A stretch of 63,448 nucleotides of DNA, the filler included, from Collodictyon triciliatum (Eukaryota), in the NCBI GenBank assembly GCA_043381765.1. It is 9 parts of 9 records of this genome, joined end to end, with 100 filler letters (N's around TTAATTAATTAA, not from the genome) between each part and the next. Parts side by side here need not be neighbours in the genome. Positions count along the whole stretch, not along the records: positions 15,531 to 23,193 come from JBHJMP010003798.1; 8 more parts are not named here. One strand, written 5' to 3'. The notes beneath the pieces are model-generated. The model did not search any database. It saw only the letters and a list, made by a program, of their open reading frames with translations, and was not told the origin of the DNA. How positions within the stretch are numbered: position 1 is the first letter of the stretch; every line of letters begins with the position of its first letter. This document shows positions 1-55,215 of this stretch, one piece after another. The position numbers and the translations under genes are program-made.

Positions 1-3000
1 ATTACAAAAGACTCCAAATCATGCTATGCTTGTCCAAAAGGCACGTTCAACTCAATATCCGGCTCATATGGAAACATACCATGCATTGAATGTCCACAAG
101 GCACCTGGAATGATAGAGATGGTCAAGCATCATGCACATCATGCCCAGCTGGCACATTCAACAGCAAAACTGGCTCATACAATCAATCATCATGCATTTC
201 ATGTCTAAACGGAAGCTACAGCTCAGAAAGAAGTGTATCATGCAGTTCATGCTCATCTGGATTCTACCAAAAAGAAAGTGTCACAAAAGATTCGAAATCA
301 TGTCATGCATGTCCAAAAGGCACGTTCAACTCAAACTCCGGCTCATATGGAAACAAGTCGTGTATTGAATGTCCACAAGGTACTTGGAATGATAAGGATG
401 GTCAAGCATCATGCACATCCTGTCCAGCTGGTACATTCAACAATAAAACTGGCTCATTTAACCAAGCATCATGTATTCCATGCCTAAATGGAAGCTACAG
501 CTCAGAAAGAAGCTCGTCATGCAGCCTATGCTTATCAGGATTCTATCAAAAAGAAGGAATTACAAAAGACTCCAAATCATGCTATGCTTGTCCAAAAGGC
601 ACGTTCAACTCAATATCCGGCTCATATGGAAACATACCATGCATTGAATGTCCACAAGGCACTTGGAATGATAAAGAGGGTCAAGCATCATGCACATCAT
701 GTCCAGCCGGTACATTCAATAATAAAACTGGCTCATTTAATCAATCATCTTGCATTTCATGTCCAGATGGAAGCTACAGCTCAGAAAGAAGCTCATCATG
801 CAGCTTATGCTTATCAGGATTCTATCAAAAAGAAGAAATGATGAAAGATTCGAAATCATGCTATGCTTGCCCAAGAGGCACGTTCAACTCAAACTCCGGC
901 TCATATGGAAACAAGTCGTGTACCCAATGTCCACAAGGTACTTGGAATGATAGAGATGGTCAAGCATCATGCACATCGTGTCTAGCAGGTACATTCAACA
1001 ACAAAACTGGTTCATTCAATCAATCATCGTGCATTCTATGTCCAAATGGAAGCTACAGCTCAGAGAGAAGCGCATCATGCAGCTTATGCTCACCTGGATT
1101 CTATCAAAAAGAAGGTGTGACAAAATACTCAAGCTCATGCTACGCTTGCCCAAAAGGCACATTCAACTCAAACTCTGGTTCACATGGCAATAAATCATGC
1201 ATAGAATGTCCACAAGGTACTTGGAATAATAATGATGGCCAAGCATCATGCACATCGTGTCCAGCTGGGACATTCAACAATAAAACGGGTTCGTTCAATC
1301 AATCATCATGTATCTCATGTCCGAATGGAAGCTACAGCTCAGAAAGAAGCTCATCATGCAGTCTATGTTCATCAGGATACTATCAAAAAGAAGAAATGAT
1401 GAAAGACTCGAAATCATGCTATGCTTGTCCAAAAGGCACATTCAAATCAAACTCCGGTTTATATGGAAACTCATCATGTGTTGAATGTCCACAGGGTACT
1501 TGGAATGATAGAGAGGGTCAAGCGTCATGCACATCATGTCCAGCTGGTACATATAACGATAAAATTGGCTCATTCAATCAATCATCATGCATTGAATGTC
1601 CAAATGGAAGCTACAGCTCAGAAAGAAGCGTATCATGCAGCTTATGCTTATCAGGATTCTATCAGAAAGAAGGAATCACAAAAGACTCAAGCTCATGCTA
1701 CGCTTGTCCAAAAGGCACATTCAACTCAAACTCCGGCTCATATGGCAACAAAACATGTATTGAATGTCCACAAGGTACTTGGAATGGCAGAGATGGTCAG
1801 GCATCATGTACATCCTGTCCAGCTGGTACATTGAACAATAAAACTGGCTCATTCAACAAATCATCATGCATTGAATGTCCAAATGGAAGCTACAGCTCAG
1901 AAAGAAGTGCATCATGCAGTCTATGCTCATCAGGATTCTATCAAAAAGAAGGAATTAAAAAAGACTCGAACTCATGCTATGCTTGTCCAAAAGGCACATT
2001 CAACACGAAATCTGGCTTATATGGTAACAAATCATGTACTGAATGTCCAAAAGGTACTTGGAATGATAAAAATGGTCAAGCATCATGCACATCGTGTCCA
2101 GCTGGCTCATTCAACGACAAAACTGGCTCATACAATCAATCATCATGTATCCCATGTCCGAATGGAAGCTACAGCTCAGAAAGAACCACATCATGCAGCT
2201 TGTGCTCATCAGGATTCTATCAAAAAGAAGGAATCACAAAAGACTCAAGCTCATGCTACGCTTGTCCAAAAGGTACATTCAACTCAAACTCTGGCTCATA
2301 TGGAAACAAATCATGTATTGAGTGTCCACAAGGCACTTGGAATGATAGAGATGGTCAAGCATCATGCACATCGTGTCCAGCTGGTACATTCAACAATAAG
2401 GCTGGCTCATTCAATCAATCGTCATGTATTACATGTCCAGATGGAAGCTACAGCTCAGAGAGAAGCGCATCATGCAGCTTATGTTTATCAGGATTCTATC
2501 AAAAAGAAGGAATCATAAAAGACTCACAATCATGTCAAGCTTGTCCAAAAGGCACATTCAACTCAAACTCTGGCTCATATGGAAACAAATCATGCATCGA
2601 ATGTCCACAAGGCACTTGGAATGATAGAGATGGTCAAGCATCATGCATATCGTGTCCAGCTGGCACACATAATAACAAAACTGGTTCATTCAATCAATCA
2701 TCATGTATCTATTGTGCAAACGGAAGCTACAGCTTAAGTGGAAGTACATCATGCATTTTGTGCTCATCAGGATTCTATCAAAAAGAAGGAATCATAAAAG
2801 ACTCTCAATCATGCTACGCTTGTCCAAAAGGCACATTCAACTCAAACTCTGGCTCATATGGAAACAAATCATGCATCGAATGTCCACAAGGCACTTGGAA
2901 TGATAAGGATGGTCAGGCATCATGCGCATCATGTCCAGCTGGTACATTCAACAATAAGGCTGGCTCATTCAATCAATCGTCATGTATTACATGTCCAGAT

Positions 3001-4160
3001 GGAAGCTACAGCTCAGAGAGAAGTGCTTCATGCAGTCTATGCTCATCAGGATTCTATCAAAAAGAAGGAATCACAAAAGACTCTCAATCATGCTACGCTT
3101 GTCCAAAAGGCACATTCAACTCAAACTCCGGCTCATATGGAAACATATCATGCATCGAATGTCCGCAAGGTACTTGGAGCGATATAGATGGTCAGGCATC
3201 ATGCGCATCCTGTCCAGCTGGTACATTCAACAAAAAAACTGGCTCGTTTAATCAATCATCATGTATCCCATGTCCAAACGGAAGCTACAGCTCAGAGAGA
3301 AGTGCTTCATGCAGTCTATGCTTATCAGGACTCTATCAAAAAGAAGGAATTACAAAAGACTCCAAATCATGCTATGCTTGTCCAAAAGGCACATTCAACT
3401 CAATATCCGGAACATATGGTGAATCATCATGCATCGAATGTCCACAAGGTACATGGAATGGCAGGGAGGGTCAAGCATCGTGCACATCATGTCCCGCTGG
3501 TACATTCAACAACAAAACTGGCTCACTCAATCAATCATCATGCATTTCGTGTCTGAATGGCACTTACAGCTCAGAAAGAAGCGCATCATGCAGCTTATGT
3601 TTATCAGGATTCTATCAAAAAGATGAAATTACAAAAGACTCAAAATCATGTTATGCTTGTCCAAAAGGCACATTCAACTCAAACTCCGGCTCATATGGAA
3701 ACTCATCATGCATTGAATGTCCACAAGGTACTTGGAATGATAAGGATGGTCAAGCATCATGCACATCTTGTACAGCTGGTACATTCAACAACAGAACTGG
3801 CACATACAATCAATTATCATGCATTCTATGTCCAAATGGAAGCTACAGCTCAGAAAGAAGCTCATCATGCAACTCATGCTCTTCAGGACTCTATCAAAAA
3901 GAAGGAATCACAAAAGACTCCAAATCATGCTATGCTTGTCCAAAAGGCACATTCAACTCAAACTTCGGCTCTTATGGAAACGCATCATGCATCGAATGTC
4001 CACAGGGTGCTTGGAGTGATAGAGATGGTCAAGCATCATGCACATCGTGTCCAGCTGGTACATTCAACAACAGAACTGGCACATACAATCAATCATCTTG
4101 CATTTTATGTCCTAATGGAAGCTACAGCTCAGAAAGAGGCGCATCATGCAGCTTATGTCC
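1..4160 (+). repeat. Coding tandem repeat, 279-bp (93-aa) unit, about 15 copies
   Basis: attacaaaagactccaaatcatgctatgc occurs at 1 and 559 (2 x 279). The unit YACPKGTFNS..CIECPQGTW..CTSCPAGTF..CPNGSYS..CSSGFYQKEG recurs throughout. Confidence 0.95.
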
Positions 4161-5977
4161 GACACGCTCAACCACAATTAAAGAAGGCTCCAAATCGATC
4201 GATGATTGCAAATGCTTAGATTCGTATGTGTCACATGATGGCATTTGCACATGTCCTTCAGGAAAATTTGAGGATGGCAATAAATGTGTTCCATGCAGAC
4301 TTGGCTCATACAAATCAACAAACGGCACGAATTTCTGCCTTTCATGTGGTGATAAATTTACGACAAAAAACAATGGCTCTATGAGTTCAACCGATTGCGA
4401 ATGTAAATCTGGTTTTGAGCTGAGAAACTCCACCTGCGAATGCAAACCTGGATGGTATGAAAAGCAAGGAAACTGTTACGAATGTCCTTCAGATACATAC
4501 AGCGATGATTATGGATTAAAATTTTGTAAACCCTGTCCTGAGGGATTTGAATGTGAAGGAACCAGTCAACCAACAGTTGCCCCTGGATATTGGCAGACTC
4601 AAACTAAAAATGGAGAATATGTCGCTTACAAATGTTTGAATGAAAACGCATGTAACGGAGGAAACAAGACATGCACCGATGGCTATACTGGGCCATTATG
4701 CAGTATATGTGAAAGTGGATACGGAAAAACAGGTTATTATTGCACTAAATGCCCAATGAAAGGAGTGAACATATTCTTGATTTTCCTGAGCTTTTTTATT
4801 CCACTTGCATTTGTTTTCTTCATGATAGAACAATCAAGACAGACAAGAACAGGAAATATTCAAATACTGAAATCTCTCTCCACCCATTTCCAAGTTTTGT
4901 CATACTTGGCGAACTTTGATGTAAAATGGAGCTCAATCATAATTTCAGCTATGAAAATCCCAGCCCTGTTCTCATTTTCTCTTTCCATAGACAGCTACCC
5001 AATCGAATGCCAAATAGAACTGTCAGTATATGAAAAATTATTGCTGACGATGTTAAGTCCAATAATTTTGACAATTATCATGTTAGTTTTCGTTTTGATG
5101 AAAGAATTAAGGAGACTCTACAAAAATGAGATTTCAAGAAGCTATTTTACAATAGTTCATTTTCGAGAAGAAATCATGTACTCGATGTTGGTCATGCTGT
5201 TTTTTGTCCATCCCTCAATCACATCAAGCATCGCACAAATATTTCCATGTGAAAAACTCGGGGATATAAGATATTTGAAAGCTAATATGTCGATTTTATG
5301 TGGTGATGAAACTTACCAATTCTGGAGAAACATTTCTTTTGTTTTCCTTTTTGCCTATTGTATCGGCGGACCTCTCTTTTTTTTTGGTCAGAATCATTCG
5401 CAAAAGAACAGCGTTGAGCAATCCTACTTCGAAGACATACGCGCTATTCCGATTTTTGGTCGATGGATATACTGAAAAGTGCCAATACTGGGAGGTCGTC
5501 CTGATGATGCAAAAGCTGGTCATTGTAATGATAAGCACGTTCTTTCCTTCTTCGCTACAAATATACTTTGGTTTGTGGCTGCTGTTTCTGATGATTGCTT
5601 CGACCATTTATTTCAGGCCATTTATATCCAATGTGCTGAAAAAGTCACAGTTGCAATCCCTCATGATTCTCTATTTCACTTTGATGCTGAGTCTACTTTT
5701 CAAATACAGCAGTATTAATCAAAATACCGAAGTTGTGTTGGTGCTTTTGGTTGTTATTCTGAATGGCGGAATATGTATTGTTTTCCTTTCAAAGGCTGGC
5801 CCAGTTGTTTTGAGACTGTTGCTCACACAATTTCTGTCCATGCTCAACTTTATTTGGGACTTGATTGTCTGCAATTGGGTCTCAAATTTTTTTGTCAGAA
5901 AAATTATGGGCATGAGAATTCGCAAGGATGTGGAAATGCATGATATCACTAATCCAAAAGTAGTAGAAGAGTTTTGA
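1..5977 (+). CDS. Large Cys-rich tandem-repeat (GCC2/GCC3, ephrin-receptor-like CxxCPxGT) surface protein with C-terminal multi-pass TM region; 5'-partial, one apparent frameshift
   Basis: Frame 1 is open from base 1 to 5475 with repeated C-x2-C-P-x-G-T-F/W/Y units. Hydrophobic helices follow from about 4770. Removing one T from the T9 run at 5377-5385 joins it to ORF 5300..5977 (GPLFF-LVRIIRK...YWEVVLMMQKL...RPF), the typical tail of this protist family. Confidence 0.85.
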
Positions 5978-14873: not shown

Positions 14874-15430
14874 TTATTCACTTTTGCCAAACATTTGGAT
14901 GCGGTGATTTGCATAGTCGCAAACATAGAGTTTCTGATTCGGTCCAAAGCAGACTCCCATCGGATTGTAAAACTGTCCATCATTTGATGAATACTGAGAC
15001 GATGTGCCGAAAGTGTGAACAACGACATTGTCTTTTGTCGTGTCATAAACGCGGATGTGACGATATCCGTGTTCACTCACCACAATTGTGTTGTTCGAAC
15101 CTTCTGCAATCGAAACACGACCCGGCACTTTATCGATTCTGACAGCGCGCAGAAATCTCCCCATCGTATCATAAATGTTGATTTTGTCACCGCCGTATCC
15201 AACCACACAGACTTCGTTCTTTTCAGTCACGCAAATGCCCTCCGGAGATGCGATTCCTTCATCACCAGAGGATGCTCTCGCAAACGAGCGTTCGTACTCA
15301 AACACACGGTTGAACTTGTCCACTTGATTCATGCTATTGTTTGTAACATAAAGATTGCCTTCGCTGTCAAAGCATGCATTATACGGACTGGAGAAACCGC
15401 CAAAGTCACTGGATTCTGTGCTTTGTGCGC
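14874..15430 (-). CDS. NHL-repeat beta-propeller protein, 5'-partial
   Basis: FSSPYNACFDSEGNLYVT, ASPEGICV and GQFYNPMGVCFGPNQKLYVCDYANHRIQMF are NHL consensus repeats. Frame is open to the contig edge. Confidence 0.88.
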
Positions 15431-15590
15431 NNNNNNNNNNNNNNNNNNNNNNNNNNNNNNNNNNNNNNNNNNNNTTAATTAATTAANNNNNNNNNNNNNN
15501 NNNNNNNNNNNNNNNNNNNNNNNNNNNNNNGAAGTCTCGAAGAAAAAAACACGCACGCGTACATACATGCACAAACAGAGGAAGAAACAA

Positions 15591-15957
15591 TCACAGCCGC
15601 AATAGAAAAAGTTTTAATATTGATGTCTCGGAAATGAAGTGCAACCGCCCCATGAATCCAAGAAAGAATCTGAATAATACAATAGTATGATTGGTATATA
15701 TAATAAGGTTAAAATACTTAATAGTTTCATTCTATTCATATAATCAATTTATATTTTATTTTCCATAATGTAATATTAAATGCAAAAATTAGAAAATTAA
15801 AAACAATCCCTTACCTTAGGCCAGACAGAACCCACCCTATAAACCTCCCACCAAACATGCATTTCAAAAAAGTATACAATCCACACTTGCGGCGGTAATC
15901 ATGTTGGTTGAGGCCGACATATTGGCTTTCACTTGCAATTGCCATACGGCCGCCCAT
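15591..15957 (-). CDS. Putative 73-aa two-exon ORF divergent from Fanzor (copy 2 at 21540-21906)
   Basis: Exons 15957-15815 and 15669-15591, donor AG|GTAAGG, acceptor TATTCAG|. Intact in both copies. Confidence 0.35.
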
Positions 15958-16182
15958 TTGAACTCGCCGAATCGGCTCTCAGCATTTTGTCTCAAATCAC
16001 TTGTAAAAAAAGCTTTGTGTGTTTCTTGGCCACAAAGCGCACATATTTTGAAAGTCTCGATAAATGCTTAATTTTACATAAATTTATTTATTTATTTATT
16101 AAATCGACTGATTGATTTAAGTTTAATTGAAATTGAAAACTCGGTAGTTCTCTAAAGGAAAAAGTAAAACAAAGACTTTCAG

Positions 16183-17669
16183 ATAAAGAAAAGAAAACGT
16201 CTTGAGTCTGAGAGTCTAAAGTCTGTAAAACCAGACTATCGAAACATGAAAAACATCTCTAAAGTCGATTGTAAAGAATCCGGATGACTACGACAAAATC
16301 AACGATACGGTTTTATTGTGTCATAATTTGGTTACCGAGACTTATCTGTTTGCAAGATGTTAAATACTGAAATCACAACAACTCCCAACAATCGATGAAA
16401 TGTTTTTTTTTTGTACGCTTTAAAGACAGTCGGGGTAGTTTCACAAGACAGAACCACAAGTTTAAAAAAACCAGAAATGAGTTAAGACTTGAAGTCTTTT
16501 TATCTCAATGATTTTCGATTCCTTCTGTCCCAAGAAGAGCGCTTTCCGTAGGTTGGACTGTCTCATGTATTACCGTACTTGGCGGAGCAAATGTTAACAG
16601 CTTATCATAACAATATTAAGGAACATTTTGTTAAGATTTTACTGCGCTTGATAAATCAAACAGTACCTAAATATGAGAATATTACGGAAGCTATTAAGAG
16701 GGCAGAGTCACAAAAGTTAAAAAAAAGCGTCATTTTCAAGAATCTCGAAATACCGAAACAATAAAAAGGATGGGCTAAAATACATTTGCATCATATTATT
16801 CTCAGCGATATTGTAAAAGGTATCAAATATGACGCCAAAATCAATCCAAATAAGTACATTCCATGTCTGATTTACATTAATCACATTTTTGAAGACATTT
16901 GAATCAAATCTGTTTCAACCAATCTCTATAAGAACTGACATTATACCATGTTATATTACTCTAGATACTGCATGTCTGATAGATCTATTAGTATTATTTG
17001 GAAAATCATTATTAATGAAGAATATATCAGGATGCGAAGAGACCTTATGGAATAAGTTCTTTGAAATGAAGGAGAGGGGCATTCGTCAATGAGCCTACAA
17101 TTTTAGATACATGATACAAACAGACGGTTTGGCGGTGTCATTATTCTTTCAAAAGAAAGGTATTTCAAATTCAAAATCCAAATAAATCAAAAAAAAACCT
17201 AAGAATATGTTTATATAGGTGAACATTCCGAAGAGCAGTTATCTTTATTAGCGACAAAAAAAACAGTTGGAGTGGACGCAGGCAAGTTTAATTTGATTTA
17301 GATGGCGGATGAGACAGGTAAGAAATTATGTCACACGGCTCACCAAACAAGACACGGTAGCAAATCTCTTGAAAATCACAAATTACTCTCGCGAGAGAAA
17401 AAAGTACAATGCCTTCAGGTATATACATGGCACCAGATTTACAAAGTGCTGTTTCTTTTGGTCTCAGGACTTTTGAAGAGAATCAGCAGTTTGAGACATC
17501 AAGAGTATCTTTAATCGATTTAGAGACGAGAATGCAATCGCTCAGAAAGCAAACAAACTGTATTCTTGACAAGGGACTTTAACAGCGCAATAAATATACT
17601 CAAGAAAGTTCGTTTAATCCTTCAAAAATATGCATACACCTTTCTTTTAAAAACGAAACAGGCTGTTGA
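16183..17669 (+). pseudogene. Fanzor1 (TnpB-related RuvC nuclease) pseudogene
   Basis: Frame-hopping translation gives KTSLKSIVKN..KINDTVLLCHNLVTETYLFAR, QMLTAYHNNIKEHF, LFQPISIRTDIIPCYITLDTACLIDL, YMIQTDGLAVSL, RuvC-I VGVDAGKFNLI (Asp at 17275-17277) and RuvC-III ESKQTVFLTRDFNSAINI (Asp at 17575-17577), with TGA at 17667-17669. Multiple stops and frameshifts; no RuvC-II or Zn-finger segment recognisable. Confidence 0.88.
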
Positions 17670-17810
17670 GTCTTTCCTGGCAACCTACACCAGTACACAA
17701 TCTTTGTGAAATAAGCGATGAGACCTTGGATACTGGCGCACGAAGTTTGCCAATCTTTCGGCTGGCTTACCCCCTTCTAGCAGAAAGGATAAATCTGGAA
17801 TATAAGTCAC
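17670..17810 (+). ncRNA. Candidate Fanzor omega-RNA scaffold / element right end
   Basis: Lies immediately 3' of the Fanzor stop. Nested stems tggcaa/ttgcca, ccagta/tactgg, cacaa/ttgtg, then ggctta/taagtc around ttct-agc-agaa. Boundaries inferred. Confidence 0.4.
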
Positions 17811-18138
17811 CTTGCTGCACCCATAATATAAAATCCACCATTATACTTTGAGCGAAAACAAATCAAAACAAGACGAAACTGGACATGACAACACGCGCTG
17901 CCCAAACGCACATGGAAGCAGATGAACTGTAGTGCGGCGCGGGGCGGGTCTGTGATCGTGTAGCAGACTATTGTCCAGCTTCTGGGCCCGAGTTGGAGGG
18001 CAGACAAAAGCTAACACAGCTTAAAGAGCTCCAGTTCTTTGGTCTCTCAGATCCACCGTGTCATGATGCACTGGCTCCTCTTTTATTCCCTTGCCTCTCC
18101 CTTTCTGATTTTATTTTATCCTTTCTCATTTTCGTTTT

Positions 18139-18303
18139 TTGTTTATTTTCTTTTATTTTCCTTTTATTTTTATTTTATTATTATTTTATTATTATTTTAT
18201 TATTATTTTATTATTATTTTATTATTATTTTATTATTATTTTATTATTATTTTATTTTTATTTTATTTTATTTTTATTTTATTTTTATTTTATTTTTATT
18301 TTA

Positions 18304-18334
<31 letters not shown>

Positions 18335-18345
18335 TCAACTTTTCT
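18139..18345. repeat. Low-complexity (TTA)n/(TTTTTA)n tract
   Basis: Directly visible simple repeat. Confidence 0.9.
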
Positions 18346-18445
18346 TACTTTTTACGTCTGTCTTGCAACAACTGATGAACTAAAAAAAAATAAAAGATCT
18401 TGAGGATAGTGTACTAAAATCTAAGTAAAAGGTCTAGAGGATCAG

Positions 18446-19315
18446 ATGTCTTCCACGCCAGCATACGACATTGTTATCAAGTTCTTGCTACTCGGCAACT
18501 CAGGTATTGGTTTGGTACAGATTCCCTCCCTCTAGACTTTCTGTTGTGTTCTGGTGTTCTATTCCAAAACTTGGTTGTCGACAATTACTATGGCTAGTGA
18601 TCGGCACCTCATCGTATCCTTCTCTTTCTGTCTCTCTTTTTTTTTTTTACATATAAAGGTGTTGGCAAGAGCGCACTTCTAGTTCGATTCTCTGATGGAG
18701 AGTTTTTGTCAGCCCACACAACAACTCTCGGGTTTGCACGTCATCTCTCTCCTTTTATTCAGCACCTTGCCCCGCCATTGAATACTCTTCAGCTGGGTTT
18801 AATCTAATCGGGCCTTTCATGTTTCTTTGCGTCTTGTTCAGAATCGACTTCAAAGTCAAGACTATTGAGATTGACCAGAAACGCGTCAAGATACAAATAT
18901 GGGATACTGCTGGGCAGGAGCGCTTTCGTGCAATTGCCACATGTAAACCTTCGATTATATCTCTTTACTTTTCTTTTCTTTTCTTTTTTTTGTATAATTG
19001 TACATGCTAGTCTTTAGACTTATCTACGGTTTCTCCTGATGCAGCTTACTTTCGTGGAGTCAAAGGATTTCTTCTCGTCTACGATGTGACAGATCGAAGC
19101 TCCTTCGAAGGTAAGGGCCATGCGCCGCCAAAAATATACCTACCACTGGCGGTATGCACACTCGCTCATAATCACTTGCTCCCTCTTATTAATCCTTTCT
19201 GCAATATCACTAACGCGTGGTCTTGAATTGATGCAGGTGTGGAAAGATGGCTCAGGGATATCCATGAGAATGCGACAGACTCTCACAAGATCATACTGAT
19301 TGCCAACAAAGTCGA
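18446..19315 (+). CDS. Rab GTPase, Rab8/Sec4-like (3' end lost in N gap)
   Basis: Exons at about 18446-18503, 18659-18731, 18842-18942, 19045-19110 and from about 19237. Motifs [44 protein letters not shown]. Confidence 0.92.
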
Positions 19316-20139
19316 NNNNNNNNNNNNNNNNNNNNNNNNNNNNNNNNNNNNNNNNNNNNNNNNNNNNNNNNNNNNNNNNNNNNNNNNNNNNNNNNNNNNN
19401 NNNNNNNNNNNNNNNNNNNNNNNNNNNNNNNNNNNNNNNNNNNNNNNNNNNNNNNNNNNNNNNNNNNNNNNNNNNNNNNNNNNNNNNNNNNNNNNNNNNN
19501 NNNNNNNNNNNNNNNNNNNNNNNNNNNNNNNNNNNNNNNNNNNNNNNNNNNNNNNNNNNNNNNNNNNNNNNNNNNNNNNNNNNNNNNNNNNNNNNNNNNN
19601 NNNNNNNNNNNNNNNNNNNNNNNNNNNNNNNNNNNNNNNNNNNNNNNNNNNNNNNNNNNNNNNNNNNNNNNNNNNNNNNNNNNNNNNNNNNNNNNNNNNN
19701 NNNNNNNNNNNNNNNNNNNNNNNNNNNNNNNNNNNNNNNNNNNNNNNNNNNNNNNNNNNNNNNNNNNNNNNNNNNNNNNNNNNNNNNNNNNNNNNNNNNN
19801 NNNNNNNNNNNNNNNNNNNNNNNNNNNNNNNNNNNNNNNNNNNNNNNNNNNNNNNNNNNNNNNNNNNNNNNNNNNNNNNNNNNNNNNNNNNNNNNNNNNN
19901 NNNNNNNNNNNNNNNNNNNNNNNNNNNNNNNNNNNNNNNNNNNNNNNNNNNNNNNNNNNNNNNNNNNNNNNNNNNNNNNNNNNNNNNNNNNNNNNNNNNN
20001 NNNNNNNNNNNNNNNNNNNNNNNNNNNNNNNNNNNNNNNNNNNNNNNNNNNNNNNNNNNNNNNNNNNNNNNNNNNNNNNNNNNNNNNNNNGCTTATTTAT
20101 TTGATCCTATATGGCAATGTCCTTGGTAAACCCACAAAC

Positions 20140-20324
20140 CGCGTGCCTGTCTTGTCTGATTCGATGCGAAACCAATCGTTGTCTTGGGCTTTGTTGTTCT
20201 GAACATACTTGATAAGGGCGGTATATTCTTCCTTGAGCCGTTCGCCCCACTTCTCGTCTCGTGGCCCGGCCCGCTCGGTCAACAGAGGGATCTTTTGCAC
20301 AGTTTGCTTTGTTCGTTCATCCAT
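20140..20324 (-). CDS. UFC1: UFM1-conjugating enzyme 1, first exon (rest in N gap)
   Basis: [62 protein letters not shown] followed by a GT donor matches the UFC1 N-terminus. Confidence 0.95.
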
Positions 20325-21479
20325 GGCACACCTTCTACAAAAGCCTCTCCTGGTCTGCAACTACTATCGGTACTATGACAGGATCAACATAAAGTCGAAG
20401 CGATCAGCATCTGGTAACTTGCGTTTGTCGGCCTTCAGCCGGCTTTGGGTTGCCGACCAAAGCTTCACGAAAGAAAGGGACGCAAGTTGTCCGATAAAAA
20501 GTTGGAAAAAAAAAAACAAGAAATAAAAACTGTAGGGGCGCATGTTTCAGTTGAGGAATGATCAAATCGTGATTGGTTTAATGGCAAGGCCGTGGGCTGG
20601 GTATAGGTAATGGAATATAGCCGGTATCTGTCGCGCGCTGATATCATCATCTTTACTATAGCTCAAGTTAATCATCTGCGTGTAGGGTGGCGAGTGAAGG
20701 AATGCATGAGAGAACATCTTAAGATATGCTCTATCGCACGCTCATGCCTTGTGATCCACAAACTCATTCGACCAGTTGGTTTCCCCGCCTGAACAACTGG
20801 GTGTCGCCAACTTCTTTGCATCGGTGTCACCTTTCCGCCGAACGAGTATACTCCGTTCGCAGCCCGCCATGCACACTTTATCGGCTTTTATAGAGCCACA
20901 CTTTAAAGCTTCAAATCAATCAAATGATGAAGAAAAATGTAAATAGCCTATAAAAAAAAATATATTTAAAAAACCAATGAACCTCCCCTTAGTTGATAAC
21001 TAAATATGATAAAGATTTAGTAATTTTAGATGCGATTCAACGATATCAACATAGCGCAAGTGTTTTCGAAATGCTTCGGTTTTGTGTCTGCGAGGAAGTA
21101 GATTGCAAAACGCAGGGTTTACAAGGACTCAAGTAAAAGAAAGCTTTTTGGAAAACTTTCCGCGTGTGATTGTCTACAAGGCCATATTTATCCGAGGAGG
21201 CGGGTAGAAAAAGAAACACCATCGGGATAAAAAGCCACAGATGAAGATATTAAGTGAAGCACTTTGCCCTCGAAGTTAAATGCTAACTTAAAAAAAAAGC
21301 TAGCATCGGAGGCATTAGGACATCAAAGTTCAATGATGAGTCCCAAAAAGGTACCAGATGGACAAACATTGAAGGCAACATCTAGTGATGCTAAAGGATG
21401 TCGGGCTGTTTGAGTATCTCTGGGCATCTTGTGACGCATAAGCCTCACCCCTCGGCAGGAAAAAGGAGAGGAAGGGGAG

Positions 21480-23193
21480 GAAGTCTCGAAGAAAAAAACA
21501 CGCACGCGTACATACATGCACAAACAGAGGAAGAAACAATCACAGCCGCAATAGAAAAAGTTTTAATATTGATGTCTCTGAAATGAAGTGCAACCGCCCC
21601 ATGAATCCAAGAAAGAATCTGAATAATACGATAGTATGATTGGTATATATAATAAGGTTAAAATGCTTAATAATCATTCTATTCCTGTAATCAGCTTATA
21701 TATTATTTTGCATTTATGTAATATTAAATGCAAAAATTAAAAAAATTAAAAACAATCCCTTACCTTAGGCCAGACAGAACCCACTCTATAAACCTCCCAC
21801 CAAACATGCATTTCAAAAAAGTACACAATCCACACTTGCGGCGGTAATCATGTTGGTTGAGGCCGACATATTGACTTTCAGTCGCAATGGCTATACGGCC
21901 GCCCATTTGAACTCGCCGAATCGGCTCTCAGCGTTTTGTCTCAAATCACTTGTATAAAAAAGCTTTGTGTGTTTCTTTACCACAAAGCGCACATATTTTG
22001 AAAGTCTCGATAAATGCTTAATTTTACATAAATTTATTTATTTATTAAATCGACTGATTGATTTAAGTTTAATTGAAATTGAAAACTCGGTAGTTCTCTA
22101 AAAGAAAAAGTAAAACAAAGACTTTCACGTGAAGAAAAGAAAAGGTCTTGAGTCTGGGAATATAAAGTCTGTAAACCCACACTATCGAAATGTGAAAACA
22201 TCTCCAAAGTCGATTGTAAAGAATGCGGATGACTATGACAAAATCAACGACACGGTTTTATTGTGTCATAATTTGGTTACTGACACTTATCTGTTTGCAA
22301 GATGTTACATATTGAAATCACAACAACCCCCAACAATCGATGAAATGTTGTTTTTTGTACGCTTTAAAGACAGCCGGAGTAGTTTCACAAGATAGACCCG
22401 CAATTTTAAAAGATCCAGATATGAGAGATGACATGATGACTTTTTATCTCAATGAATTTCGATTTTTTTTGTTCTGAGAAGAACGCTTTCCGTTGGTTGA
22501 CTGCCTAATGTATTACCATACTTGACGAAGCAAATGTTAACAGCTTATTATAACAACATTAAGGAGCATTTTGTAAATAGGTTACTGAGTTTTATAAACC
22601 AAAGTTCCATAAGATGAGAATATGACGAAGCTGTTAAAAAGGCAGAGTCACGAAAGCTAAAAAAAGCCACCTTCAAGAAACTCGAAATACCGTAGCAATT
22701 TAAAAGATGGACTATAACGCATTTGAATCATATCATTCACAGCGACATTGTAGTTGATATCGAATATGACGTCAAATTCAATCCAAAAAAGCACATGGTA
22801 TGTCTGATTTACATGAATCGCATTTTTGAGGATGTTGGAACCAAACTGCTTCAACCAATCTCTATAAGAACTGACAATATACCATGTCATATTAGTCTAG
22901 ATACCGCATGTTTGATAGATCTATTAGTATCAACAGGAAAAAGATTATTAATGAAGAATATATCAGGATGTAAAGAGACCCTATGGGATAACTTCTATGC
23001 AATAAAGAGAGGGTCTTTCATCAAACAGACTACAATTTTAAGCACATGATACAAACAGACAGCTTGGCAGTGTTATTGTTTGAAAAGAAAGGTATTTCAA
23101 ATTCAAAATTCAAATATAATCAAAAACCAAGAATATGTCTATATAGATGAACTTTCCGAAGAGCAGTTATCTTTATTGGAGACGAAAAAAATG
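21480..23193 (+). mobile_element. Fanzor1-bearing element, copy 2 (right part cut by contig edge; left end may extend upstream of 21480)
   Basis: Direct repeat of 15531 to about 17263, starting gaagtctcgaagaaaaaaacacgcacgcgtacatac. Confidence 0.85.
22129..23193 (+). pseudogene. Fanzor1 pseudogene, copy 2, truncated just before RuvC-I
   Basis: KTSPKSIVKN..KINDTVLLCHNLVTDTYLFARCYIL, LLQPISIRTDNIPCHISLDTACLIDL, HMIQTDSLAV, EYVYIDELSEEQL. Its stops and frameshifts differ from copy 1. Confidence 0.85.
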
Positions 23194-23293: not shown

Positions 23294-25120
23294 AGTCAGT
23301 AGATAGGGTCTCAGGGCTCTGCCACGTCTCTTGAAGACAGATGATATCCGCGTGGGTGAAAAGAGCTGTCTTGTAAACCTCTTTCCGCCTGTGGAGGTCG
23401 TTAATCCCCCTAGCGTTCCATGACAGAACGCCGAAACGCATGGTCTGCTATTAATGGATTGAGTGAGGTCCCTCCGTGAGAGCAGCATTGCTCTCGTTGT
23501 ATTCAGTCGTGTTTGCGGATATCTGTGTTGAATCAGTCGTGGTAGTTGGGGGTGTTTCTGTGGCTATGGTTGTTGTATTTGTTTCGGAAGTTATTATTGG
23601 TGTCCCAGCATGCATCTGTCGCAATTTTGGCGCTGATAGTTTCCTTGTGAGTTGTGCGGGTGACGCTACGGCCTCTGCGGTGGGAAGTTGTGTGTTTTCC
23701 GGCGAGGCTGTCAGCTCATTGTTTGTTCTTTTTCGGGATTGGCTTGTGCGAGCTATACGCATGGGTGTTACAGCATGCTGGTGGTTTGTTTTGTTAGGGG
23801 CGCCCTCGAATCTTGGAAATTGCGATGTGAAGCCGATGCTGCTTTAGAGTGTTCCTGATTCAGTCACTGTCTCTTGGGACGCAGGTGAGAGATAGAGCGA
23901 GTCGTTGCTGGAGTTTGCTTCTTTAGGGCTATTCGATTTTTGCACGTGCTTTGCTAGAGTCACGTCAGGGCTCCTATGGAGCATGAAGCTGGCTATGTTT
24001 GGTTGTCTTGTCGACTTGGATTGAGGCGCTGGTGAAGGTCTTTCTACTCTCGGTGGTTTAGATTGGGGTTTGGAGCTCAGGTTTGCTGTTGGTGTATTTG
24101 GTGTAGTCGTCTTATTCTCAGGGGTTCTTCCAGACGAAGAAGCCGTGCCTTGGTCTGTTTGTTCGGTTGATTTCAGGATGACGCGCGTTTCCAAAGTCTC
24201 ATTTACTTCCTGTGGTAGTTCCTTGCGAGGAGCTTCTTGGTTGGGTGGCGGTAATGGGCTGAGGCGGTTCATCATCCTCGTCTTCCATGGCTTCGGGTGA
24301 TGGTGCCCGGAGGGTTGGGCCGTCTTTCACCCCTGGACTGCGTGGGTTGCGAGGGTTTGCGGTTGGGTTTACCGTGGTATTTGCCCTGGTGCTTGTTATG
24401 TTTGGTATCGTGTTGGGGCTTCTCCTTCCGTTCGGGGAGGAGTATAAAGGGGACGAGGAATCCTTGCAGGTTTATTTTCTTTTTTGGCACTTTGGGTAGT
24501 TCTGATGCCGGGAACTTGTCCAGCGCGTCATTGGTCCAGATACCGTCCACAGCTTCGTAGTAAACTACGGTAGGCGAGAATGATGCTTTGCAGGCCTCTT
24601 CAATGTCTGCATTGGTGAAGCCTGGGGTATGTCGCCGATGATATCAGAGTGGAGAGGTGGCCTCTCTTGGTACGGGCGGAAAGAGCGGTTGATTAGTTTA
24701 AACTGTCCTGCTTTGGCAAACTCTGGGGCGTTTTGTTGTTGCGGGTTAGCTGCTGTGTATCCTTGGGGTTGAATGTACAGTTGCATGATGACGTTCTCCT
24801 CGTAGCACTTGAATTGTTGAAGGACTTCGGCGAGCTCTTTCTTCGCTTGGTTGCGGGCTTCGTGGTTCCGGGGCAGTTTGTGCTTACCTCGAAGGCGGAC
24901 GTAGCAGCCGGCTCCGTTCAGGTTCTGCTCCTGGGCTCTCTTTGGTCGGCGGATCGGTGTGGCCGAGGGGTCTCGGTTGAGCGGATTACACGATTCTTGT
25001 GCGTTCGAGTTTGTTTGTCTCAAGCTTGCGCTTTCGACCTCCACACTCGAGTCGGGCTCCATGAGTTGCTCCAGACGAGATCGAGGATATCCTCTTTGAT
25101 TAGGGAGCGTTAGCTACTTG
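23294..25120 (-). mobile_element. L1/Tx1-clade non-LTR retrotransposon 5' part: frameshifted ORF1 (about 25062-23451) and ORF2 APE endonuclease start (23441 to contig edge)
   Basis: MRFGVLSWNARGIN..RRKEV..HADIICLQETW is the APE N-terminal motif. It is preceded by a 9-nt spacer and a long Ser/Thr/Pro-rich ORF1. Confidence 0.88.
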
Positions 25121-27144: not shown

Positions 27145-27619
27145 GTTAAGCAAAGTCCACTGCCGGCTACGCACGACTCCCGAAACCAGGGGACGGTCAA
27201 GCGCCACTTCCGATATTACCAGACAAATAACGATGTATCGCTTTTTGTCAGAGTCGCCCAGAAAGAAACACAAGGAAAGTGACCCGTTGTCCCCTCAAAA
27301 GACTCATCCAGTGGAATGAAATAGATGTAAAATTTATCTGATAGATGGTTGAAAGGACTCGTCGGAATCGATTTTAGAAGTAACTGTCATGTGCGTACTT
27401 TCATCGACCCGACAACTTTACCCGCTCTTCTGTCAGTCTCGAACACAACCAGAAATCGCGTTGGAGCTGATTCACCTCGGGTAGGATAGTCTGCGTGTGA
27501 GAAAAAACACTTTCCTTTCTACGTTTTTTTCTTTTTTTCTTCCTGTTTTTTCTTCCACCCAAAACACAAAAACTCCAACCACATAATCCGGGTTTTCCAC
27601 TGTGTTGTCCACAGCTCAT
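27145..27619 (-). repeat. About 470-bp dispersed repeat with zf-RVT-like coding remnant; second copy at 54758-55215 (+)
   Basis: Reverse-complement match to 54758-55215, which encodes KVRAWQLLRKSIPT...EETTGHFPC. Confidence 0.85.
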
Positions 27620-31103: not shown

Positions 31104-31295
31104 AGAAAGAAGAAAGAAGAAAGAAGAAAGAAGAAAGAAGAAAGAAGAAAGAAGAAAGAAGAAAGAAGAAAGAAGAAAGAAGAAAGAAGAAAGAAGAAAA
31201 AAGAAAGAAGAAAAAAGAAAGAAGAAAGAAGAAAGAAGAAAGAAGAAAGAAGAAAGAAGAAAAAAGAGAGAAAAAGAAAAAGAAAAAGAAAAAGA
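31104..31295. repeat. (GAAAGAA)n purine microsatellite
   Basis: Directly visible. Confidence 0.95.
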
Positions 31296-31850
31296 GTGTA
31301 CGTCCAACTCCGCGCCGGGACACCCGGCAGGCGCGCACGCAACCCGACCCTCCCTCCGCGGACACTCTGCGACACTGAACCTGCCTCTGCAAATCACCGC
31401 AACACGCTATTGGCCTTGCAATTCGTCCACAACACACAGGCTGCACTTGCTTAATGTCAACTATCCACAAAAGGCGCGTTAAGGACAAAATTTGGGCAAG
31501 CCTTTCACCCACAACACAAACAACGGCCCTCTGCCAACGCCGCGCCCGAAACTCAAAAGAATGTCCCCCTTTGAGCCCATTCCGAAGCGTAGTGGCAGGC
31601 GCTATGTCCATGCTACATTAGCTCTTAAAGGCCAGGTAGGAAGTGGTTCCTTCCATAAAGCGCCATCCCGAATCCGCTTTTGGTGCGCGCGTGTTGGGCA
31701 CGGATTGCAACTTGCTGGCAAACGGATTTCGGCTATTAATATCTTATATGGAATTCCTAAAGAGGTATAATTGCTCGGGTACGGTATGACGGTTGTAAGG
31801 GATTCTCGCTGTGCTTCCTCGAATGTAGAGAAAAAAAGAAAGAAAAAAGG
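31296..31850 (+). mobile_element. Possible decayed 3' end of a non-LTR retrotransposon
   Basis: GC-rich island with KDKIW...KECP...YLIWN fragments ending in an A-rich tail. Weak. Confidence 0.3.
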
Positions 31851-41187: not shown

Positions 41188-44100
41188 ATGAAGCTCCCGC
41201 TTGCGGTTGTTGTTCTTCTTGCCATCCTGTCACTCGCTTCAGCACGGCCGGCGGTATGTCATTCCAAACAGTGTCATTCGCCTTAGAGAAACTTCTCGTG
41301 TTTCACAAAGGAGCCACTACTTGCGAATATCTTCCGCTGTTGCCTCTATGTGGCTTTTGTCTTTTTCTTTCTCTCTTTCTCTCTTTCTCTCGTTTCTGTT
41401 ATTCTACTTCGTAAAACTCCTCGATTTTCCCCTTCAGTTCCTTCCTTCGATCCTTACCATGGATTCTACTTTTGCTTGTAGATTGATCCGCTCACGGCCA
41501 AGATCGCGCATGTCTTTGTCCATAGTCTGTCGAAGACGGCTGAGCTGGAAAGCTTTGATCCTTTGGCCGACGCTGCGTTGGTGTACATGAACGCTTTGTT
41601 GGACAAACAACCGCGCGCGTGTCTGCCTTGCAAGCAAACGGTCAAGTCGGCCCAGCAGCGCTTTCTTTCACCCGAGGCTCAACAGCAGCTGAACGAACTG
41701 GCCAAGCAGGCATTTACCCCTCTTTTCCTTTCAAAAGGCCTCTGTGCATAATTCTTATTCATCACACTCGGCATTCACAAAATCATTCTCGTTTTCCTTC
41801 TCTATTTTTTTATTTGTCCTTTTTCTACTAACATCAGTGAATGTATTTGGCTCTCTATCTTCCCTTTCCCTTTCCCTTTTCCCTTTCCTCTAATCTCGCT
41901 ATGTATGCCCATCATGATATCATATGAAGAATGTATCATAAACAACTTTTTTTTCTCCCAAAAAACTGAGAGAAAAGCTTTTCTTATCGGAAACAAGACC
42001 TAAAAACATAGTGGCCTTTTTTAATTTGTCTTTTGAATCTGAACTTGCTTCGTATTTCCTTCCATGTAGATTTGCCTCACACTTGAATTATTTACCCCGC
42101 ATGTTTGCAACGGAACTGTGGACCTATTTGATGGGCCAGTAATCACCATCATCGGTATTTTCCAATCATGAAATATATACTAGAACTCATCATTATATCC
42201 GATAGTCATAATCTACATCAAGTATTCTTCATTTAAAACTGATATACAAAGCTTTATCATTATTCCAAAGTTCCTTTTCTTCTTTCTTCTTCTTTCTTCT
42301 TCTTTCTTCTTCTTTCTTCTTCTTTCTTCTTCTTTCTTCTTTCTTCTTCTTTCTTCTTCTTTCTTCTTCTTTCTTCTTCTTTCTTCTTCTTTCTTCTTCT
42401 TTCTTCTTCTTTCTTCTTCTTTCTTCTTTCTTCTTTCTTCTTTCTTCTTTCTTCTTTCTTCTTTCTTCTTTCTTCTTTCTTCTTTCTTCTTTCTTCTTTC
42501 TTCTTTCTTCTTCTTTGAAGGATATGTTGTATTGAACGAACAAGAACCGTATGAAAGCAAGCACATCCGTTTATTTCGTTATAATGACATAGGTCATTCT
42601 GTCTTGGAGCCTGCTGAAGTGTGCGGACTGCGAGGGGAATGTCCCTATACGCCGGTTCCTACATGGGATGCCACATTTGCGAAGCCGAAACCGCCTGTTC
42701 AGCCGCGTCCGGTCCCATCACCCACCGGGCAACGTCAATATCTGCTCCACATCACTGACACTCACTTTGTAGGGTTTGATTTCGATATAGACATATTGCT
42801 CGATTTTGTTCTTTTTTCTCCCTCAAAAACTGTTATTACTTGACCTATACATCTAATTCTACCCTGTTACAGTTTTAACAAAGACATACTGCTCCCACAA
42901 AAAATTTTCTTTGCAATCCAATACAATATTGTGTACCGCTAGACAAAAGACAATTAAAATACCTTTCAAAATACTAATACTATGTGCGTATCATAGGACC
43001 CAAAATATGTCATTGGCTCAGAAGCCAAATGCGCAGACCCACTTTGCTGTCGCCCTCCCTGGGTCGGAGGAACTGTCACACAACCTGCTGGTGTCTTTGG
43101 CGACTATCTCTGCGACGCTCCATTAAGATTGATCGATGAAATCCTAAACCATGCAAGCCAATCCCGTTTTCCGTAAGCACTGATTCTAAGCATAAATAGG
43201 AGTGTACACGATTTAATACGAATCTACCGCTTTTTATCGACACATTTTTTTTTATATCTGTATGTATTACCGAAGAAATAATCGTAGCCATCTTCTACAC
43301 CCAACAAACCACATTTCATATTATTTCATAACTAGTCCGTCTATTCACTTAAATACTTTTTACCTTTTTTTTAAAAAAAAAAAATTAATGTGATTGGGTG
43401 TCTTGATTATTAGAATCAGCGCTATCTTATGGACAGGCGATATTCCACCTCATGACGTTTGGGAAAGTTCCCGAGAAAGCTACACATCCCTGATGGAGCT
43501 TTCTGCCTCTCGTGTGCAATCATACTTTCCTCGCATCCCAACATTTGCTGCCATAGGCAACCATGAATCTGTTCCGGTAATTAATTTTTTTTTTTTTTAT
43601 TCACATGATCGCCAACATCTCTTAATTAATTTACGATATTGTCTTCGTTTCCATTTCTAAAAAGAAAAAAAGTTCTGCTTTCGATCCGTTGTATATTGAT
43701 TGAATGTATCATCACTTGCTGATGTTGTAAATAATCGTTTGCGCTGATTCATGATGTACAGGTGGATTTGTTTGCACCCAACTCAGTTCCAGAAGATGAG
43801 TTTTCCAGTCGCTGGCTATACCAGACACTTGCTGCCCAATGGTCGAGATGGCTTCCTGAGTCTGCTGTATCAGAACTTCGAACGCGGGGAAGCTACACCA
43901 CTTTAATTAATCGCGGTCTTCGTGTGATCAGCGTTAATGACGAGGTAATTGAAGTTCCGTTAAACATTTGAATATCACGCATTACAAGGGTATTTCACAA
44001 AATATTTTCATCAGTTTATTTGACAACTGCGATATTTTCCTCATTTTTTATGTATAATAATGGTAATAATAATAGCAATAATAATCATGTGAATTTCTGA

Positions 44101-54353: not shown

Positions 54354-55215
54354 GCTTATTACCACAAACTGCTCTAAGGCTTCACCCTCGCAAGCAGCCA
54401 GCATGATAGCACCAATAGATGCAGGCGAATTGTGGAAAGCGGTCAAGTCGCTGCACAACGGAAAGGCGCCAGGTCCAGATAGGCTGCCCAACGGAATATA
54501 CTCCGCTTTCTTTACTGAGTTCAAGGAATTATTGGTGACTTTTCTGAATGGAATCATGTCTGGTGGCGACCTGCCGCAAGGATTTACAGAGGCCACAGTG
54601 CGGCTGATACCAAAGAAAGGAAACTCGAGCAACCTTGCAGACTGGCGGCCAATATCACTGTTGAATAATGACTACAAGATATTTACGACGCTACTCAGAA
54701 ATCGCATATCACCCATCGCTGACAAGATTTCTACTTTTTACCATATAAATGTATAATATGAGCTGTGGACAAGACAGCGGAAACCCCGGATTGTGTGGTT
54801 GGAGTTTTTGTGTTTTGGGTGAAAGAAGAAGAAAAGAAAATAGAAAGGAGAAAATATGATCTCACACGCAGACTATTCTACCCGAGGTGATTGAGCTCCA
54901 ACATGATTTCTGGTTGTATTCGACACTAGTAAAAGAGCGGATAAAGTTGTCAGGTTAATGAAAGTACGCGCATGGCAGTTACTTCGAAAATCTATTCCGA
55001 CGAGTCCTTTCAGGTGTCTATCTCGGGCAAGACTTACACCCTATTTCATTCCACAGGATGAGTCTTTTGAGGAGACAACGGGTCACTTTCCTTGCGTGTC
55101 TTTTCGGGTGACTCAGACAAAAAGCGATACATCGTTGTTCGGTTTTAACGGAAGTGGCGCTTGACCGTCAATTGGTTTCGGAACCATGCGTAGCCGGCAG
55201 TGGACTTCGCTTAAC
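54354..55215 (+). mobile_element. L1/Tx1-like ORF2 remnant: RT N-terminal domains, then zf-RVT-like fragment
   Basis: ELWKAVKSLHNGKAPGPDRLP..FY-like, LIPKKG..LADWRPISLLNNDYKIFT (RT domains 0-2), truncated at about 54730. Confidence 0.9.

Follow-up and report, generated by a model that had tools for sequence, protein, structure and literature searches.

Does a frame-disrupted stretch of the Collodictyon triciliatum genome (Eukaryota; GenBank assembly GCA_043381765.1) conceal a working Fanzor1 nuclease? Fanzors are, to our knowledge, the only known eukaryotic RNA-guided DNA nucleases, and they are under development as compact genome editors. The stretch lies at 16183–17669 of a 63,448-nucleotide (nt) window, by which we mean the whole of the DNA analyzed here, a string of ~7.7 kb contigs with N spacers between them. 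A first-pass annotation, made from the sequence alone, had proposed that it holds a hidden Fanzor1 nuclease gene with a second, independently mutated copy in the same contig. Our analysis supports the family assignment and finds no live gene. The two copies in the window are very probably pseudogenes of an intron-less Fanzor1 element with one open reading frame (ORF), residing in a eukaryotic genome.

Fanzor1 ancestry of the two copies

The contig that carries both copies spans 15531–23193 (7,663 nt) and has an internal gap at 19316–20090. The copies lie on the same strand, 5,949 nt apart, and align over 1737 columns (15531–17263 versus 21480–23191) with 88.4% identity. Copy 1 begins at the very start of the contig and extends from 15531 to ~17710. 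Copy 2 (21480–23191) is truncated by the contig end. The proposed start of the gene, 16183, is the exact codon aligned to Met1 of P0156, an intact 648-aa relative, and the ATG expected there has become ATA. The proposed end, 17669, falls ~40 nt before the stop codon at 17707–17709.

P0001 is copy 2 read in one frame with an X at each stop (311 aa). Against 177,635 PDB sequences it matched the Fanzor1 proteins of Parasitella (PpFz1, e-value 5.3e-7) and Guillardia (GtFz1, 3.1e-5) and, more weakly, SpuFz1 (0.068). No Fanzor2, TnpB or Cas12 was among its PDB matches at an e-value ≤10. The 3′ part of copy 1 (P0003) had no relevant match in the PDB, and a Pfam search of three read-through pieces returned no family. 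Among 1.84 billion representative proteins, P0001 matched 482 at an e-value ≤1e-3 and 109 at ≤1e-10, mostly of 600–760 aa. A profile was built from 82 stored P0001 matches of 580–800 aa and searched in the six frames of the contig. Domain e-values were 1.1e-64 for copy 2 and 6.2e-46, 1.1e-35, 2.6e-16, and 1.5e-4 for four pieces of copy 1, the last two being the piece with RuvC-I and that with RuvC-III. At the level of sequence the match of the copies to these homologs is firmly beyond chance.

Intact relatives tie the copies to proteins of known structure. P0156 was found by a word-based search and shares 47% identity with P0001 over 95% of the latter. It matches the three solved Fanzor1 proteins in the PDB (2e-28 to 4e-23) and nothing else there at an e-value ≤0.01. 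An AlphaFold model of P0156 was made from a 65-sequence alignment (pLDDT 87.7, pTM 0.86). Its top seven fold matches are seven Fanzor1 chains (e-values 3e-27 to 3e-23, TMq 0.64–0.75), and the next are Cas12 proteins (1e-6, TM ≤0.32). The Fanzor1 fold, bilobed with a large REC and with RuvC and zinc-finger domains, was found in the model of the intact relative P0156. A second full-length relative, P0006 (634 aa), gives an end-to-end alignment with SpuFz1 (9.2e-37), and its e-values against SpuFz1, PpFz1, and GtFz1 range from 9e-37 to 7e-16.

Two published catalogs agree, both compared over the first 400 residues of long sequences. The table of Saito et al. has 3003 entries (500 FZ1, 186 FZ2); all 46 of its entries matched by P0156 and all 13 matched by P0001 are labeled FZ1. 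In Data S1 of Jiang et al., P0156 has 385 matches (144 in family4, seven in family3, 234 unclassified) and P0001 has 49 (35 in family4, 14 unclassified). Families 1, 2, and 5 are absent from the classified matches of either protein in Data S1. We infer that family4 is one of the Fanzor1a–d families. A motif search of the Saito et al. supplements gave 0 occurrences.

The motifs on which the first-pass annotation had relied, IQTDG, VGVDAGK, and TRDFNSAINI, are all present on the plus strand (Table 1). They are correctly read as the conserved WED-domain TDG, RuvC-I, and RuvC-III columns of the family, as the 65-protein alignment and the relevant passages of PMC10711439 indicate. Columns conserved in at least 90% of the 65 family proteins are T312, G314, D364, P365, G521, E555, T558, S559, R603, D604, and N606. 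The TDG motif has been termed characteristic of Fanzor1 (PMC10711439), and TDG, DPG, and alternative-glutamate features have been described for the group (PMC10711439; PMC10530073). P0156 also satisfies the signature that Bao and Jurka gave as D-X(125,275)-[TS][TS]-X-X-C4 zinc finger-X(5,50)-RD (PMC3627910), with D364, T558-S559, the pairs CCNC and CLIC, and R603-D604. The PDB matches, the profile e-values, the FZ1 labels, and the fold of P0156 (TM 0.75 to SpuFz1) all bear out the Fanzor1 origin proposed at first pass. Homology is firm, and the sequence of the region is best read as derived from a Fanzor1 gene.

Decay of the copies and the family around them

Lesions were mapped on both copies by frameshift-aware dynamic programming against P0156. 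Those of copy 1 include at least seven in-frame stops (16361, 16483, 16549, 16762, 17090, 17200, 17299) and six frameshifts (16249, 16400, 16900, 17165, 17410, 17529), and 287 of its 499 aligned codons are identical to P0156. IQTDG sits in a different reading frame from VGVDAGK and TRDFNSAINI. There is no DNA in copy 1 for P0156 residues 449–588 (140 codons), and profile positions 454–606 are correspondingly unmatched. Lost with this segment are the G521 position, the alternative RuvC-II glutamate (E555), the TS residues, and the two CxxC pairs of the C4 zinc finger. The catalytic Asp of RuvC-I is retained, with the Pro of DPG changed to Ala, and the Arg-Asp of RuvC-III is retained in TRDFNSAINI. 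The Asp and the RD are now only ~100 codons apart, with the TS pair and the zinc finger absent, and copy 1 thus departs from the Bao and Jurka signature. These stops, shifts, and the one deletion, seen against intact P0156, agree with the frame disruption first reported.

Copy 2 covers P0156 residues 1–360 and is identical to it at 191 of 351 codons. Its start has gone from ATG to GTG at 22129, it carries three stops (22475, 22615, 22693) and four frameshifts (22351, 22499, 22999, 23127), and IQTDG has become IQTDS. The two copies have no stop in common and differ in their start-codon changes, in keeping with the earlier claim of independent mutation. A single T-run (residues 74 and 76) carries a frameshift in both copies, and that one may have a common origin. 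Judged by these lesions, both copies are dead and neither could encode a nuclease. The description of the region as a hidden nuclease is therefore not upheld, with both copies dead and copy 1 also without the catalytic glutamate and zinc finger.

The copies belong to a larger family, as the first-pass annotation had suspected. Contigs came from three sequencing runs, none of them listed as RNA: X1 and X2 from one study, which we guess to be RNA, and X3, a metagenome that we guess to be DNA. Each had a small share (0.06–0.09). On 15531–19315 there are 329 contigs in X1 and 327 in X2, of which 260 and 267 are under 95% alike; thus each run holds hundreds of diverged family contigs. They span 15658–17816, and up to 25 overlap at a single position. 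X1 and X2 contigs also join neighboring exons of a Rab gene in the same contig of the window across three GT..AG introns. Since these introns are spliced in X1 and X2, as in RNA assemblies, we take the family to be transcribed in the X1/X2 organisms, with moderate confidence. X3 contains three diverged pieces of the Fanzor repeat and, separately, one 247-nt contig piece identical to the single-copy sequence at 18367–18612 but for one gap. The segment 17817–18324 has no covering contig in X1, X2, or X3, and we conclude nothing from this.

The same contigs bear on the large deletion. Position 17529 is the break point of right-side contigs, five in X1 and six in X2, and by our own translation their loose ends read K-K-L-Y-R-C-L-I-C, which is the second CxxC of the finger. 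Among the 20 contig pieces listed, none spans 17529, and pieces end at 17494–17526.

P0005 (137 aa) is 75% identical to copy 1. P0004 (291 aa, a “hypothetical protein”) is 78–80% identical to P0156 and, in our reading of the alignment, ends in an apparent frameshifted reading of the same A-run as copy 1. P0156 belongs to a sister subfamily of the window copies. Among proteins of 356–1134 aa in 5.8 billion clusters, none but P0156 itself is more than 46% identical to it, and its nearest entries in the two Fanzor catalogs are 36–37% identical. Scans of metagenome contigs with P0156 and with the P0156/P0004 alignment gave 184 and 353 pattern matches with no relatives among them, and a scan of viral contigs with P0156 gave 36 with none.

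Having many copies is an ordinary state for such mobile genes. In Spizellomyces punctatus, 42 Fanzor1 loci, 19 of them full length, have been reported (PMC10432273). Multi-copy Fanzor1 families with many partial members being already described, the family in the window is of a known kind. A literature search pairing Fanzor with pseudogene returned nothing relevant, as judged on titles and the openings of abstracts, and no literature was found under the names DUF8286 or PF26935.

The likely workings of the ancestor can be sketched from its relatives. Judged from P0156, the ancestral gene would have encoded a nuclease of ~648 aa. Its parts would have been a basic cluster (KKRKR) at the N terminus, a REC lobe, a TDG-bearing WED domain, a RuvC domain, and a C4 zinc finger. 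The RuvC catalytic set would have been of the “rearranged” kind, combining the Asp residues of DPG and RD with an alternative Glu in NEF-R-T-S. The model described for SpuFz1-type proteins combines a 3′-end guide RNA, motif-dependent cutting of double-stranded DNA, and retention of the element in the genome (PMC10432273; PMC10530073). By analogy, the ancestral protein would bind a guide RNA made from the 3′ end of the element carrying its gene and would cut double-stranded DNA that matches the guide beside a short motif. Such cutting would help the mobile element to persist. After their separation, both copies would have drifted neutrally.

Several observations weigh against reading the copies as pseudogenes of such an element. 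The lesion counts depend on the alignment penalties and on P0156, which is just 54–58% identical to the remnants, and the 3′ half of copy 2 lies beyond the contig end, unseen. The best inverted match of the presumed ends scores 16, against 17.8 ± 2.3 for shuffled sequences, and there are no terminal inverted repeats above controls. The flanking ORFs contain no transposase domain. The 3′ end has no Rfam family (e-value ≤1) and no unusual fold, the latter from a single sequence (17560–17830, z = −0.26) of one 3′ end. With no inverted repeats, transposase, or structured RNA, the transposon and guide-RNA parts of the account rest on analogy; some characterized Fanzor loci are also without inverted repeats or transposase (PMC10432273). 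The RNA nature of X1 and X2 is a guess, and their contigs might come from sister copies and not from these loci. Lastly, the divergence of the copies is strongly uneven, 3.7% in 15531–16182 versus 14.4% in the ORF (Fisher p = 9e-14). Simple neutral decay after a single duplication fails to explain this.

Origin of the copies and their place among known systems

Divergence between the copies rises stepwise, from 1.2% in 15531–15700 (2 of 170 sites) to 4.6% in 15701–16182, 8.5% in 16183–16430, and 16.2% in 16431–17263. Identity accordingly starts at 99% (5′ end) and declines steadily to ~80% toward the 3′ side of the ORF. Family contigs differ from the copies by 11–16% in both leader and ORF; the leader is therefore not conserved across the family. 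In X1 and X2 these contigs break off at 15652 and 15711 with loose ends, so 15531–15651 may lie outside the repeated element. We suspect gene conversion or staged duplication behind the gradient.

Instead of two insertions, the pair could stem from one local duplication of ~5.9 kb that took in the element together with its flank. Neutral decay would have come next, and gene conversion of the 5′ part afterward. The copies are co-oriented at a matching distance, and their similarity reaches the contig start, at least 120 nt beyond the family break points, where it is still 99%. Differences fall evenly on codon positions 1, 2, and 3 (53/42/57, chi-square p = 0.31), which argues that the copies diverged as dead sequence, and the 5′-to-3′ drop fits a conversion tract. 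On the other side, the contig ends lie inside the copies, and the flanks upstream of copy 1 and downstream of copy 2 are not comparable. The same pattern would result from a longer subfamily whose left end lies farther out, and the hundreds of diverged family contigs mean that dispersal happens too. We consider a local duplication a serious contender, at somewhat less than an even chance.

The loci could also be dead as genes and still active as RNA, their “ghost” 3′ ends supplying guides to intact Fanzor1 proteins elsewhere. Ghost loci with the guide-RNA region alone are described in Spizellomyces (PMC10432273), copy 1 still has the ORF's 3′ end and a tail (17527–17816), and family contigs occur in what appear to be RNA assemblies. 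The 3′ region, however, has the unremarkable fold and the lack of an Rfam match given above, conservation is not assessable from a single 3′ end, and the contigs tell nothing of the strand, ends, or level of any RNA. We regard this as improbable.

A separate observation concerns 3′ tails in viral relatives. Between L001 (4860–4960) and L002–L004 (L002: 4860–4955), relatives on IMG/VR viral contigs, similarity between independent loci ends ~55 nt past the stop codon. The tail so bounded can fold into a hairpin, CCTTGAA...TTCAAGG, with compensatory change at 0 of 25 predicted pairs and just two distinct sequences to compare. The observation fits the short 3′ tail of copy 1 and proves nothing about it.

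A remnant of integrated giant-virus DNA, as opposed to a cellular transposon family, is less probable still. The best-scoring named relatives are indeed giant-virus proteins (Dasosvirus, Homavirus, Hyperionvirus, Bodo saltans virus, and others), which make up 16 of the 46 P0156 matches. The nearest ESM Atlas clusters are 92–100% viral, and P0006 is 80–88% identical to genes on four IMG/VR viral contigs of 57–254 kb, one of them named as a giant-virus metagenome-assembled genome. Yet host genes with spliceosomal introns (Rab, UFC1) lie within 2 kb of the copies, no further virus-like ORF was seen in the contig, the family comprises hundreds of diverged contigs, and identity to the viral proteins is just ~26–36%.

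The reading that either copy is a live gene, its breaks being introns, an unusual genetic code, or sequencing errors, can be set aside almost entirely: introns do occur in some Fanzor genes (PMC10530073) and the assembly is fragmented and gapped, but P0156 runs collinear with the two copies and no intron intervenes, so introns do not account for the breaks; TAA, TAG, and TGA each interrupt the frame, so no alternative code, which we considered and rejected, rescues the ORF; elsewhere in the window, ORFs of 1824 and 482 aa are uninterrupted, which argues against poor sequence quality as the cause; and the breaks differ between the copies, both start codons are gone, and 140 codons have no DNA.

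As decayed copies of a cellular Fanzor1 element, the pair has a close known counterpart in SpuFz1 and its element Spu-1. Both consist of a single intron-less ORF in an element of ~2–2.5 kb, both occur at many genomic loci of which a good share are partial, and the P0156 model matches SpuFz1 structures 9ceu and 8gkh with TMq 0.73–0.75 (e-value ~1e-27). They differ in that sequence identity is only ~20%, both copies in the window are dead, and the Glu and zinc-finger segment is missing from copy 1. Clear inverted repeats of 30 nt and a defined guide-RNA scaffold of 75 nt are further features of Spu-1, and neither was found at the copies.

The giant-virus Fanzor1 proteins (Pfam DUF8286/PF26935) are the best-scoring named relatives of both P0156 and P0001 and are of the same length (620–680 aa); PF26935 is assigned to all of the 120 relatives listed. 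Identity is 26–36% to named members and at most 46% to any unnamed relative, and the window copies, unlike these, sit between intron-bearing cellular genes in a dispersed, decayed family. GtFz1 is the best solved-structure match of P0156 by sequence (2.1e-28) and its closest cellular entry in the Saito et al. table (XP_005840014.1, 30% over 261 aa). GtFz1 loci also have no recognizable inverted repeats or transposase (PMC10432273). Identity to GtFz1 is low, and GtFz1 is intact and has been shown to cut DNA.

Fanzor2 and TnpB (IS607, IS200/IS605) share the RuvC core, the zinc finger, the guide-RNA logic, and an alternative-glutamate arrangement (PMC10530073; PMC10711439). Their resemblance is far weaker. 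By fold to P0156, ApmFz2 ranks 19th and TnpB 35th–37th, with TM ~0.2. Neither is among the PDB matches of P0156 at an e-value ≤0.01, there are no FZ2 or family5 catalog matches, and both lack the large REC lobe and the TDG motif.

No working enzyme is to be had from the locus itself, which is of value for pointing to a many-copy Fanzor1 family related to giant-virus genes, of which an intact relative, P0156, is already in public data. The modest added interest is in the lineage, which is distant from cataloged Fanzors, has giant-virus kin, and is apparently large and transcribed. Each further Fanzor lineage broadens the range of known sequences, and decayed copies are of use for dating the spread of these elements and for following it. 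Gene callers convert such remnants to short “hypothetical proteins,” e.g., P0004. A tentative and rather doubtful proposal is that the copies stand for a large Fanzor1 lineage, still transcribed, in a eukaryote that has been little sampled, and that the host keeps active copies and guide RNAs. If true, the lineage would exemplify the passage of an RNA-guided nuclease between virus and host and would be somewhere to find a new compact editor.

Feature map and neighboring genes

Table 1. Features of the two Fanzor1 copies (positions along the window).
Feature	Position	Strand	Basis or remark
Upstream flank common to both copies	15531–15651	+	Counterpart 21480–21600; at contig start
Copy 1, 5′ non-coding leader, in repeated family	15652–16182	+	Overlain by diverged family contigs, 14–16% different
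Copy 1, Fanzor1 coding remnant (pseudogene)	16183–17709	+	Frameshift-aware alignment to P0156; profile matches
IQTDG, Fanzor1 WED-domain TDG motif	17114–17128	+	T312 invariant, G314 ≥90% conserved, in 65 family proteins
VGVDAGK, RuvC-I with catalytic Asp; DPG changed to DAG	17266–17286	+	D364, P365 ≥90% conserved; profile piece 17179–17409, e-value 2.6e-16
Internal-deletion junction; P0156 residues 449–588 (~420 nt) gone	17527–17530	.	Alignment, profile gap, loose ends
TRDFNSAINI, RuvC-III with catalytic Asp	17569–17598	+	R603, D604, N606 ≥90% conserved; tblastn of P0156 residues 588–632 against 17527–17667, e-value 6.4e-10
Short 3′ tail; family right end and any omega RNA scaffold expected here	17710–17816	+	Family contigs reach bin 17690–17816; end position inferred
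Copy 2, upstream flank and 5′ leader	21480–22128	+	Aligned to 15531–16182, 3.7% substitutions
Copy 2, Fanzor1 coding remnant, P0156 residues 1–360	22129–23193	+	Profile e-value 1.1e-64; cut by contig end

The copy 1 leader contains no Pfam family, Rfam family, or tRNA, and the tRNA scan found none. Downstream of copy 1, exons of a Ras/Rab-family GTPase lie at 18696–19315 on the plus strand (PF00071, 2e-10), and the gene continues into the assembly gap. Its GT..AG introns, spliced out in X1/X2 contigs, are at ~18731–18840, 18943–19044, and 19109–19234. On the other side of the gap, 20100–20360 on the minus strand is the first part of a gene for the Ufm1-conjugating enzyme UFC1 (PF08694, 1.4e-23). 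Its closest proteins are two transcriptome entries (89% and 76%), followed by those of animals, oomycetes, algae, and amoebae at 57–71%, a scatter across eukaryotes that points to no one lineage.

Other contigs of the window contain unrelated features. A 5′-open ORF of 1824 aa (1–5475, plus strand) has 15 tandem cysteine-rich repeats of 279 nt (93 aa) and then a hydrophobic tail; the repeats match Ephrin_rec_like (PF07699, 2e-55), are TNFR-like, and give the ORF the look of a giant surface protein built of repeats. Part of an NHL-repeat protein (PF01436, 1e-14) is found at 14874–15428 on the minus strand, and a Roc/Ras GTPase domain (PF08477, 1.6e-14) at 59046–59594 on the plus strand. At the beginning of the next contig, 23295–23447 on the minus strand, is the start of an endonuclease/exonuclease/phosphatase domain of APE type (PF03372, 25.2 bits), probably a fragment of a retrotransposon lacking long terminal repeats (non-LTR). 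Long AT-rich and (CTT)n/(AAG)n/(CCTTTT)n simple repeats occur at 18130–18342, 31104–31296, 42293–42512, and 48202–48445. An inverted repeat, 83–91% complementary, pairs 27226–27536 with 54826–55139 in a different contig and indicates another repeat family.

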